Shown here piece after piece: positions 16,489-38,455 of a DNA stretch of 64,000 bases. Both the position numbers and the translations under genes were made by a program. Numbering within the stretch: the first letter of the stretch is position 1; each line of letters begins with the position of its first letter. This stretch comes from Escherichia coli. Its GTDB lineage: Bacteria; Pseudomonadota; Gammaproteobacteria; Enterobacterales; Enterobacteriaceae. The stretch lies in the NCBI RefSeq assembly GCF_013122565.1, contig NZ_CP053258.1; one strand, 5' to 3'. The notes beneath the pieces are model-generated. The model saw nothing but the letters and a program-made list of their open reading frames with translations. It did no database searches and had not been told where the DNA came from.

Positions 16489-16551
16489 TTTGATACTCCC
16501 CCCTGACTCCTCCATACTGAAAGTGAACTGACAGCCAAATGGAGGAGTCAC

Positions 16552-17199
16552 GTGAAGCTATACATTTACGATCACTGCCCTTACTGCCTCAAAGCCCGCA
16601 TGATTTTCGGCCTGAAAAATATCCCCGTCGAATTACATGTTCTGCTCAACGACGACGCAGAAACACCCACCCGGATGGTCGGTCAAAAACAGGTTCCCAT
16701 TCTGCAAAAAGATGACAGCCGCTATATGCCAGAAAGCATGGACATCGTTCACTATGTCGATAAACTCGACGGCAAACCGTTACTGACCGGCAAACGTTCC
16801 CCTGCCATTGAAGAGTGGCTGCGCAAGGTCAATGGCTACGCCAACAAACTGCTGTTGCCGCGTTTTGCCAAATCGGCATTTGATGAGTTTTCTACTCCCG
16901 CCGCGCGCAAATATTTCGTCGACAAGAAAGAGGCCAGCGCGGGTAATTTTGCCGACCTGCTGGCCCACTCTGACGGTCTAATTAAGAATATCAGCGATGA
17001 TTTACGTGCGCTGGACAAACTGATCGTCAAACCGAACGCCGTGAATGGCGAACTTTCGGAAGATGATATTCAGCTATTTCCGCTGCTGCGTAATCTGACG
17101 CTGGTAGCCGGAATCAACTGGCCAAGCCGCGTTGCTGATTACCGCGATAATATGGCGAAACAGACACAAATCAATTTGTTATCATCAATGGCGATTTAA
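16552..17199 (+). CDS. grxB: Glutaredoxin 2 GrxB (215 aa)
   Basis: Translation MKLYIYDHCPYCLKARMIFGLKNIPVELHVLLNDDAETPTRMVGQKQVPILQKDD... with CPYC active site. Confidence 0.95.
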   Translation: MKLYIYDHCPYCLKARMIFGLKNIPVELHVLLNDDAETPTRMVGQKQVPILQKDDSRYMPESMDIVHYVDKLDGKPLLTGKRSPAIEEWLRKVNGYANKLLLPRFAKSAFDEFSTPAARKYFVDKKEASAGNFADLLAHSDGLIKNISDDLRALDKLIVKPNAVNGELSEDDIQLFPLLRNLTLVAGINWPSRVADYRDNMAKQTQINLLSSMAI

Positions 17200-17332
17200 T
17201 CCTGACCCGCCGCGGCAGCCTGTATTCGCGGGTTGCCGCCGTTTTCAGTTTTTTCTGCTGGCGAGTTTATCGCTGGTGACACATGCTGCGTTGTGTCAGG
17301 ATATTGACGCAGATTTCATGTCGAGGACTACC

Positions 17333-17893
17333 ATGCACAAGTTTTTATTTGCCGCTGCATTGATCGTCAGTGGCCTGCTCGTTGGCTGTAATCAACTCAC
17401 CCAATACACCATCACCGAACAAGAAATTAACCAGTCGCTTGCGAAACATAATAATTTCTCAAAAGATATCGGTTTACCCGGTGTGGCTGACGCCCATATT
17501 ATTCTGACAAACCTGACCAGCCAAATTGGTCGCGAAGAGCCGAATAAGGTTACCCTAACCGGAGACGCCAATCTGGACATGAACTCCCTGTTCGGTAGCC
17601 AGAAAGCGACCATGAAACTGAAGCTGAAAGCGCTGCCCGTGTTTGATAAAGAAAAAGGCGCGATCTTCCTGAAAGAGATGGAAGTGGTCGATGCGACGGT
17701 ACAACCGGAAAAAATGCAAACGGTGATGCAAACGTTGCTTCCCTATTTGAACCAGGCATTACGCAATTACTTTAACCAGCAACCTGCTTACGTCCTGCGC
17801 GAAGATGGCAGCCAGGGCGAAGCAATGGCGAAAAAACTGGCGAAAGGCATTGAAGTGAAGCCAGGCGAAATTGTCATTCCGTTTACGGATTAA
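17333..17893 (+). CDS. yceB: Lipoprotein YceB (DUF1439), 186 aa
   Basis: Translation MHKFLFAAALIVSGLLVGCNQLTQYTITEQEINQSLAKHNNFSKDIGLPG... (lipobox LVGC); ATG at 17333 preceded by GAGGA; longer track ORF overlapping grxB rejected. Confidence 0.9.
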   Translation: MHKFLFAAALIVSGLLVGCNQLTQYTITEQEINQSLAKHNNFSKDIGLPGVADAHIILTNLTSQIGREEPNKVTLTGDANLDMNSLFGSQKATMKLKLKALPVFDKEKGAIFLKEMEVVDATVQPEKMQTVMQTLLPYLNQALRNYFNQQPAYVLREDGSQGEAMAKKLAKGIEVKPGEIVIPFTD

Positions 17894-17899
17894 TCACGA

Positions 17900-17924
17900 G
17901 GGCGCATTTGCGCCCTTTATTTTT
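17900..17924 (+). terminator. Rho-independent terminator after yceB
   Basis: GGGCGC-ATTT-GCGCCC hairpin followed by TTTATTTTT. Confidence 0.8.
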
Positions 17925-17931
17925 CGTGCAA

Positions 17932-17947
17932 AGGAAAACGTTTCCGC
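17932..17947. promoter_or_regulatory. PurR operator (pur box) in pyrC promoter region
   Basis: AGGAAAACGTTTCCGC, palindromic around central CG (AAACGTTT core), about 50 nt upstream of pyrC ATG; matches PurR box consensus ACGCAAACGTTTGCGT. Confidence 0.75.
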
Positions 17948-17998
17948 TTATCCTTTGTGTCCGGCAAAAACATCCCTTCAGCCGGAGCATAGAGATTA

Positions 17999-19045
17999 AT
18001 GACTGCACCATCCCAGGTATTAAAGATCCGCCGCCCAGACGACTGGCACCTTCACCTCCGCGATGGCGACATGTTAAAAACTGTCGTGCCGTATACCAGC
18101 GAAATTTATGGACGGGCTATCGTAATGCCCAATCTGGCTCCGCCCGTGACCACCGTTGAGGCTGCCGTGGCGTATCGCCAGCGTATTCTTGACGCCGTAC
18201 CTGCCGGGCACGATTTCACCCCATTGATGACCTGTTATTTAACAGATTCGCTGGATCCGAATGAGCTGGAGCGCGGATTTAACGAAGGCGTGTTCACCGC
18301 TGCAAAACTTTACCCGGCAAACGCAACCACTAACTCCAGCCACGGCGTGACGTCGATTGACGCCATCATGCCGGTACTTGAGCGCATGGAAAAAATCGGT
18401 ATGCCGCTACTGGTGCATGGTGAAGTGACACATGCAGATATCGACATTTTTGATCGTGAAGCGCGCTTTATAGAAAGCGTGATGGAACCGCTACGCCAGC
18501 GTCTGACTGCGCTGAAAGTCGTTTTTGAGCACATCACCACCAAAGATGCTGCCGACTATGTCCGTGACGGAAATGAACGGCTGGCTGCCACCATCACTCC
18601 GCAGCATCTGATGTTTAACCGCAACCATATGCTGGTTGGTGGCGTGCGTCCGCACCTGTATTGTCTACCCATCCTCAAACGCAATATTCACCAACAGGCA
18701 CTGCGTGAACTGGTCGCCAGCGGTTTTAATCGAGTATTCCTCGGTACGGATTCTGCGCCACATGCACGTCATCGCAAAGAGAGCAGTTGCGGCTGCGCGG
18801 GCTGCTTCAACGCCCCAACCGCGCTGGGCAGTTACGCTACCGTCTTTGAAGAGATGAATGCTCTGCAGCACTTTGAAGCATTCTGTTCTGTAAACGGCCC
18901 GCAGTTCTATGGGTTGCCGGTCAACGACACATTCATCGAACTGGTACGTGAAGAGCAACAGGTTGCTGAAAGCATCGCACTGACTGATGACACCCTGGTG
19001 CCATTCCTCGCCGGGGAAACGGTACGCTGGTCCGTTAAACAATAA
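17999..19045 (+). CDS. pyrC: Dihydroorotase PyrC (348 aa)
   Basis: Translation [52 protein letters not shown]... (HxH metal-binding motif). Confidence 0.96.
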
Positions 19046-19385: not shown

Positions 19386-19410
19386 GCCGGGTCGCCCCGG
19401 CTTTTTTATT
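19386..19410 (+). terminator. Rho-independent terminator after dinI
   Basis: GCCGGG-TCGC-CCCGGC hairpin followed by TTTTTTATTTT. Confidence 0.8.
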
Positions 19411-37410: not shown

Positions 37411-38061
<651 letters not shown>

Positions 38062-38065
38062 AGCC

Positions 38066-38455
38066 ATGAAACGTTATTTACGCTGGATTGTGGCGGCAGA
38101 ATTTCTGTTCGCCGCAGGGAATCTTCACGCCGTTGAGGTAGAAGTCCCGGGATTGCTAACTGACCATACTGTTTCATCTATTGGCCATGATTTTTACCGA
38201 GCCTTTAGTGATAAATGGGAAAGTGACTATACGGGTAACTTAACGATTAATGAAAGGCCCAGTGCACGATGGGGAAGTTGGATCACTATAACGGTCAATC
38301 AGGACGTTATTTTCCAGACTTTTTTATTTCCGTTGAAAAGAGACTTCGAGAAAACTGTCGTCTTTGCACTGATTCAAACTGAAGAAGCACTAAATCGTCG
38401 CCAGATAAATCAGGCGTTATTAAGTACGGGCGATTTGGCGCATGATGAATTCTAA
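38066..38455 (+). CDS. csgE: Curli secretion specificity factor CsgE (129 aa)
   Basis: Translation [80 protein letters not shown]... Confidence 0.94.

Follow-up and report, generated by a model that had tools for sequence, protein, structure and literature searches.

The 64-kb stretch of Escherichia coli DNA analysed here (the window) contains the yceB–pyrC intergenic region, a locus that is already characterised, and it is best explained by an intrinsic terminator of yceB, a weak pyrC promoter that carries a PUR box in its spacer, and a leader with a start-site switch; we put the probability of this overall explanation at roughly nine in ten. The dominant control of pyrC is the pyrimidine-responsive leader together with the start-site switch, directly downstream of the box. 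A sequence-only reading of the region had described a strong terminator closely followed by a palindromic pur box, and had concluded that pyrC is insulated from read-through and purine-regulated. What it observed is confirmed, and its interpretation is supported yet incomplete, because control by purines is weak, the operator falls short of the optimum, the leader is the main control, and the adjacency of terminator and promoter is probably incidental. The sequences, folds, conservation, K-12 identity and Rfam match given below are our own observations, to which a published RNA 3′ end is added. All essentials of the arrangement are already known, from a literature that began in 1987–1994 and from Rfam. 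Work on the pyrC promoter and leader is said to have been done by Wilson and colleagues in 1987 and 1992 and by Liu and Turnbough in 1994.

The two genes had been named correctly, as evidenced by the open reading frames, the matches to E. coli genomes and the K-12 record:

17333..17893, plus strand: yceB coding sequence, a lipoprotein of 186 aa with the stop codon TAA at 17891–17893 (open reading frame and translation; K-12 b1063)
17999..19045, plus strand: pyrC coding sequence, dihydroorotase of 348 aa

According to the surrounding open reading frames, they belong to the plus-strand series mdtH-grxB-yceB-pyrC-dinI-bssS-solA, and K-12 MG1655 has the identical gene order on the minus strand of its record, from which, together with an alignment, the coordinate conversion was derived (window position = 1140606 − K-12 coordinate). 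A 1-kb query spanning the locus found the yceB/pyrC annotation in 5,424 of 5,426 complete E. coli genomes, and a 120-bp query of the region was matched with at least 98% identity by 5,424 genomes. In this 120-bp region, about two-thirds of the E. coli genomes have at least two bases that are not those of the window, which therefore appears to carry a minority allele; a frequent class with two mismatches includes laboratory strains such as BL21-AI, and K-12 differs within the 120 bp at two bases, one in a yceB codon and one in the terminator loop. Over 17860–18010, the alignment with K-12 has three differences, two in the last yceB codons and one in the terminator loop, and from the T-tract to the pyrC ATG the bases are 100% the same. 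The PUR box is not displaced relative to K-12, as the spacer aligns base for base, and the claim of a pur box at pyrC thus withstands this comparison. Outside the Enterobacteriaceae and Erwiniaceae, the yceB–pyrC synteny is broken, as seen in Photorhabdus caribbeanensis (locus L024, 1070–3777), in which four identical-scoring tRNA genes replace yceB upstream of pyrC.

The yceB terminator and the adjoining pyrC promoter

The terminator follows a co-oriented gene, with only 6 nt between the yceB TAA and the hairpin stem, and consists of two elements:

17900..17915, plus strand: terminator hairpin GGGCGC-ATTT-GCGCCC (stem GGGCGC at 17900–17905, loop ATTT at 17906–17909, stem GCGCCC at 17910–17915), extendable to 17898–17917 via A-U and G-U pairs
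17916..17924, plus strand: terminator T-tract TTTATTTTT, 8 U in 9

Both had been located correctly, and the assignment is confirmed by a mechanical scan, by fold energy, by conservation and by Term-seq. The scan detects the hairpin with eight pairs, six of them G-C, but as it reports 9 sites in the window against 3.9 expected from shuffled sequence, the scan alone is weak and unspecific evidence. For the hairpin with its tail, the folding energy is −12.9 kcal/mol (z = −3.5), a value equalled by 3 of 200 shuffles, and for the hairpin with its flanks it is −16.1 kcal/mol (z = −3.9), which none of 200 shuffles attained. A Term-seq analysis of MG1655, grown in LB to an OD of 0.4, lists a 'primary' yceB 3′ end at position 1122685 of the minus strand, to which about 36,000 reads belong (Adams et al., 2021, PMC7815308, supplementary file 1). 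By coordinate mapping, this position, which was determined in K-12 and thus in another strain, is 17921 in the window, a U that lies 6 nt beyond the stem and inside the T-tract; the flanking sequence printed in the Term-seq table is the same yceB hairpin, and the register of the printed sequences was checked against the sgrS entry of the same table.

The GGGCGC/GCGCCC stem is constant in Escherichia, two Citrobacter and Enterobacter BIGb0383 despite five different loops, among them ATTT in the window, ATTC in K-12 and E. albertii, and TGAT and ATTA in Citrobacter. Non-homologous elements, also composed of a hairpin and a T-tract, are found 3′ of yceB in Kluyvera, Pseudocitrobacter, RIT691, Bisph1 and Klebsiella BIGb0407, and a strict scan detected no clean hairpin-plus-T-tract in seven of the 16 genera, including P. 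vulneris, ESNIH1, Superficieibacter, Ag1, MAG bran7 and Mangrovibacter. Judged by its G+C-rich stem, its U-tract, its position behind the stop codon and the mapped 3′ end, the element has what would be expected of an intrinsic terminator, and the terms 'strong' and 'insulated' seem reasonable for it. Transcription of yceB would accordingly be predicted to end at a Rho-independent terminator, with a 6-bp G-C hairpin, a U-tract, and release about 6 nt past the stem. As Term-seq does not separate termination from processing, and as a Rho-dependent region has been reported about 116 nt downstream, within pyrC, the hairpin might instead be an RNA-stabilising 3′ stem or a processing stop, and the 3′ end a product of exonuclease trimming of longer transcripts. 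We consider this highly improbable, as the geometry is the canonical one of an intrinsic terminator, with a 6-bp G-C stem, a U-tract directly behind it and the 3′ end 6 nt into this tract, and as hairpins with T-tracts recur at this place in other genera with unrelated sequences.

Two other structural possibilities for the intrinsic terminator were rejected. It is not bidirectional, since the 5′ side of the stem lacks an A-tract and a convergent gene is absent as well. The minimum-free-energy fold contains an outer pairing of CACGA (17895–17899) with UCGUG (17924–17928) that would enclose the U-tract, and this pairing was judged to be due to chance because Citrobacter has CCAGA there. As to neighbouring sites, a 12-bp stem with eight G-C pairs, GCGGCAGCCTGT-ATTC-GCGGGTTGCCGC, is found just past grxB (17212–17239, plus strand); it is followed by the poor T tail CGTTTTCAGT and, lying ahead of the start of yceB (17333), might terminate grxB transcription weakly. 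From the pyrC stop (19045) to dinI, the scan found no terminator-like site, and pyrC transcription may therefore run into dinI, which is followed by a clean terminator at 19386–19401 (GCCGGG-TCGC-CCCGGC with TTTTTTATTT). An rdlD-like Rfam match in the mdtH–grxB spacer (16505–16563, minus strand) is almost certainly noise, with 20.4 bits against a gathering score of 50 and an E value of 0.75.

Two bases past the end of the T-tract, a weak sigma-70 promoter of pyrC would begin. Its hexamers can be assigned as follows:

17926..17931, plus strand: pyrC promoter −35 region GTGCAA, matching the consensus in three of six positions and placed by its 17-nt spacing to the −10 hexamer
17949..17954, plus strand: pyrC promoter −10 hexamer TATCCT, conserved in nearly all loci

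With GTGCAA, 17 nt and TATCCT, the hexamers agree with the consensus in 7 of 12 positions, which is below the threshold of a simple promoter scan; the scan did not flag them, and the assignment therefore relied on spacing and conservation. With the −10 hexamer as the anchor, the pyrC upstream regions of 31 Enterobacterales loci reveal an architecture of (G/A)TGCA(A/T), a spacer of exactly 17 nt, TAT(C/G/T)CT, 6 nt, and a C-rich start region, with the alignments showing GCCGGAGC, which contains the Shine-Dalgarno sequence, downstream of the start region. The motif (G/A)TGCA(A/T) and the architecture are conserved in 29 of these 31 loci, and TGCAAA (17927–17932) is invariant in the alignment of 16 Enterobacteriaceae.

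The sequence-only reading had stated that the pur box follows the terminator within 8 nt, and this is true, as the seven bases CGTGCAA separate the T-tract from the 16-mer. It had also seen an example of regulatory packing here, of which the tight adjacency is real: a single nt lies between the T-tract and the −35 region GTGCAA, and 2 nt lie between the tract and TGCAAA. This applies to Escherichia and Citrobacter only, and in other genera the terminator, if present, lies 10–35 nt further upstream. The abutment thus appears to be a lineage-specific consequence of a short spacer, and the packing of terminator and promoter is probably incidental. It could be functional if the T-tract doubled as an A/T-rich, UP-like element of the weak pyrC promoter, to which an upstream element would be useful given its core hexamers. 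The T-tract reaches to 1 nt from the −35 region in Escherichia and Citrobacter, and in the other 12 Enterobacteriaceae genera, where the terminator is further off, the 7–10 nt upstream of the −35 region are A-rich (GAAAGAG, TAAAAGA). We nevertheless regard a UP-like role as rather unlikely, since A/T-richness before a −35 region is common and may be compositional, and since several genera have no recognisable terminator at this place.

In one of about 5,424 genomes, that of E. coli 2022H048 (locus L082, NZ_AP029609.1, ~1796–2481), an IS200C element with a frameshifted tnpA is inserted within the terminator T-tract, at a point that equals 17921/17922 of the window. At the left junction GCGCCCTTTATT is followed by GTGCAC, and at the right junction CCTCCGGCTATGCCGGAGGATA is followed by TTTATTTTTCGTGCAAAGG. 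The stem and TTTATT remain attached to yceB in this strain, and the hairpin of the IS end with a regenerated TTTATTTTT adjoins the intact pyrC promoter and box. With its T-tract regenerated beside the promoter, this insertion is uninformative on a UP-like role.

The PUR box in the promoter spacer

The box that had been noted in front of pyrC is indeed at the pyrC promoter; the sequence-only reading was silent on its location in the spacer, which it occupies completely except for the last of the 17 bases.

17932..17947, plus strand: PurR operator (PUR box) AGGAAAACGTTTCCGC, assigned by matrix score, conservation and promoter position, with published work naming pyrC among the direct targets of PurR

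For scoring, we used a PurR weight matrix built on the ChIP-chip data of Cho et al. (2011), in whose Table 1 there are 28 sites that bear the motif. The 16-mer AGGAAAACGTTTCCGC occurs once in the 64-kb window and is, with 16.5 bits, the best PurR matrix match on both strands. As 0.27 matches of at least 16.5 bits are expected per dinucleotide-shuffled window, which extrapolates to about 20 chance matches per genome, the score alone is not decisive, and it is the promoter position together with the conservation in 16 genera that makes the box more than a chance match. Two abutting PurR-like 16-mers on the minus strand (38020–38051; 14.2 and 14.4 bits) are probably chance matches, being sub-threshold and within csgD; the pair lies at the 3′ end of this coding sequence (37411–38061), and csgE starts at 38066.

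The score of the pyrC box is in the lower quartile of the 28 ChIP-supported sites (median 20.4 bits). Position 13 is C, and G is found there in 27 of the 28 sites, gadX being the other site without it; G13 is thus a typical rather than a strictly defining feature of PUR boxes. Due to the C at position 13, the GCAAAC motif is absent from both pyrC half-sites, and the box would be a low-affinity variant in which C replaces a near-invariant G. The box had been called palindromic, which says too much of an imperfect palindrome in which only five of eight pairs are complementary in the PurR register (G3/C14 and AAAC/GTTT). The conspicuous symmetry GGAAA-ACG-TTTCC has its centre one half-step off the PurR dyad.

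Since the box fills the promoter spacer, PurR that has bound its corepressor (hypoxanthine or guanine) would be expected to be in competition with RNA polymerase there and to reduce pyrC transcription to a modest extent. Steric occlusion of RNA polymerase at the spacer and the −35 and −10 flanks is the most likely mechanism, as we infer from the operator–promoter geometry, which is based on our sequence analysis and a review. In the literature searched, we did not find this geometry described explicitly for pyrC, nor did we find pyrC start coordinates in the Cappable-seq TSS supplements. Purine repression of pyrC reportedly is about two-fold in the primary papers. For PurR action itself we depend on the literature, in which pyrC is cited as a direct PurR-repressed target (two papers of 1990, one by Choi and Zalkin and one by Wilson and Turnbough), with reference to in-vitro PurR binding and purR-dependent repression at pyrC. 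The effect is described as modest, of about the size that purines have on carAB P1 (three- to four-fold) and much smaller than on the pur genes. A PurR ChIP-chip analysis detected 13 of 15 known targets, including pyrD, whose box has G13, but not pyrC, which the authors could not explain, and the pyrC transcript responded to purR in the transcriptome despite the missing peak (Cho et al., 2011). The claim that pyrC is purine-regulated therefore agrees with its citation as a direct PurR target, and it has to be qualified by the minor contribution of this control, the modest repression, the absence of a ChIP-chip peak and the non-consensus position 13.

The pyrC upstream loci that we compared included L016–L034, L061 and L075. 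In all 16 Enterobacteriaceae loci, a PUR box occupies the same promoter slot, with 15.9–18.6 bits in 15 of them and 10.6 bits in Enterobacter Ag1 (overall range 10.6–18.6 bits). The central CG and the AAAC/GTTT core are retained, position 5 being the only core position that varies, and this in a single genus; substitutions are mainly found at positions 2, 4, 15 and 16, which the matrix tolerates, and position 13 is C or A in all 16 genera, never G. This pattern of conservation supports a protein-binding constraint on the box. Upstream of pyrC in 17 loci of Yersiniaceae, Erwiniaceae, Pectobacteriaceae, Hafniaceae, Morganellaceae and related groups, there is no box above 6 bits, and in Yersinia, Rahnella, Pectobacterium and Brenneria the right half persists (CTTTCCGC or CTTTACGC, immediately 5′ of TTATCCT). 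In Vibrio hannami, the PUR box GCGTAAACGTTTGCGT upstream of pyrC is a consensus one, scores 21.6 bits and is followed by TT and TATACT, and in Photobacterium the box CAGCAAACGATTGCTT with 15.3 bits lies beside a −10-like hexamer.

The persistence of the right half in four genera without a full box, the lack of a PurR ChIP-chip peak at pyrC and the non-consensus position 13 in 16 of 16 genera would all fit with a 16-mer that is conserved mainly as a promoter spacer, with a negligible PurR occupancy in vivo and an almost irrelevant operator. We think that this is quite unlikely: conservation in 16 of 16 genera extends to the left half and the central CG, and substitutions mainly at tolerated positions would be unexpected without a binding protein; in addition, the literature cites in-vitro binding and purR-dependent repression, and two Vibrionaceae have a PUR box just 5′ of a −10-like hexamer at pyrC. 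A functional, if weak, operator agrees better with these points, and the distribution of boxes and half-boxes favours an old PurR–pyrC link that several families would have lost while keeping the right half as promoter spacer, although two outgroups are too few to decide against independent gain. A wider scenario, in which selection would keep the weak operator, the ancient PurR–pyrC link would be weakened in the Enterobacteriaceae and lost in sister families, and the T-tract of Escherichia and Citrobacter would have taken the place of an ancestral A-rich, UP-like stretch and may serve termination and promoter alike, is speculative, and we would lean against it as a whole.

The pyrC leader and the selection of start sites

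The account of pyrC regulation in the sequence-only reading was incomplete, as the CTP/GTP-dependent start-site switch and the leader that sequesters the Shine-Dalgarno sequence, which begins 2 nt past the interval considered there, were missed.

17949..17998, plus strand: PyrC leader, Rfam RF02372, 68.7 bits against a gathering score of 50
17961..17964, plus strand: alternative start sites CCGG, obtained by mapping a review (PMC6524683) on the sequence, which makes the exact bases probable ones

The match to RF02372 (PyrC_leader) is full-length, covering positions 1–50 of 50. In the leader, CCGGC (17961–17965) pairs with GCCGG (17981–17985), and the latter arm covers part of the Shine-Dalgarno sequence GGAG (17984–17987); both arms are invariant in 16 genera, and the length of the loop varies. 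The start-site switch is taken from the literature, according to which a low CTP/GTP ratio moves the start two bases downstream to a G, and the longer RNA, owing to its two additional C residues, can form a hairpin at the 5′ end in which the ribosome-binding site is sequestered (review PMC6524683). Our folding of the two RNAs, with −8.1 kcal/mol for the C-start RNA versus −3.0 kcal/mol for the G-start RNA, agrees with this mechanism. At high CTP, transcription would start at the C residues 17961/17962, and the CCGGC/GCCGG hairpin would hide the Shine-Dalgarno sequence; if the CTP/GTP ratio is low, transcription would start at G 17963, the hairpin would be too weak, and pyrC would be translated. 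At its gathering threshold, RF02372 recovers Citrobacter only among the 16 other loci that we scanned, and as it recovers only close relatives, it is unusable for tracing the leader in distant families.

A peak of a Rho-termination region lies at 18037 of the window (K-12 1122569, minus strand), 39 nt into pyrC. The upstream/downstream reads at this peak are 154/43 without bicyclomycin and 106/123 with bicyclomycin, and the Rho score is 4.16, with p = 1.5e-11 (Adams et al., 2021, supplementary file 2). The signal could reflect an action of Rho on untranslated, hairpin-forming C-start transcripts of pyrC in rich medium.

Comparison with known systems

Within about 100 bp, the region stacks a terminator, a repressor site in a promoter spacer, NTP-sensitive start selection and a translational hairpin, a textbook case of layered control. 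The significance beyond annotation quality is small, and it lies in real regulatory elements being recognisable from raw sequence. What is added is likewise small, namely the conserved sub-optimal operator position, the family restriction of the box and the lineage-specific abutment, and these additions could be of use in work on the evolution of weak cross-pathway operators.

Like the canonical Rho-independent terminators of E. coli, that of yceB has a G-C stem, a tetraloop and a U-rich tail, is located just past the stop codon, and has its 3′ end in the U-tract; unlike them, its T-tract nearly touches the −35 region of the next promoter. With consensus PurR operators, such as those of purT (ACGAAAACGTTTGCGT) and pyrD (CGGAAAACGTTTGCGT), the pyrC box shares the length of 16 bp, the central CG, AAAC/GTTT, G3/C14 and the overlap with the promoter, and it differs from them by C instead of G at position 13, by C instead of T at position 16, and by its 16.5 bits as compared to their median of 20.4. 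The leader has no differences from the PyrC_leader of Rfam. From the terminator stem to the pyrC ATG, with the exception of the loop base, the window is the same as the pyrC control region of K-12, from which it is distinguished by the loop ATTT in place of ATTC and by two synonymous-region changes at the end of yceB.
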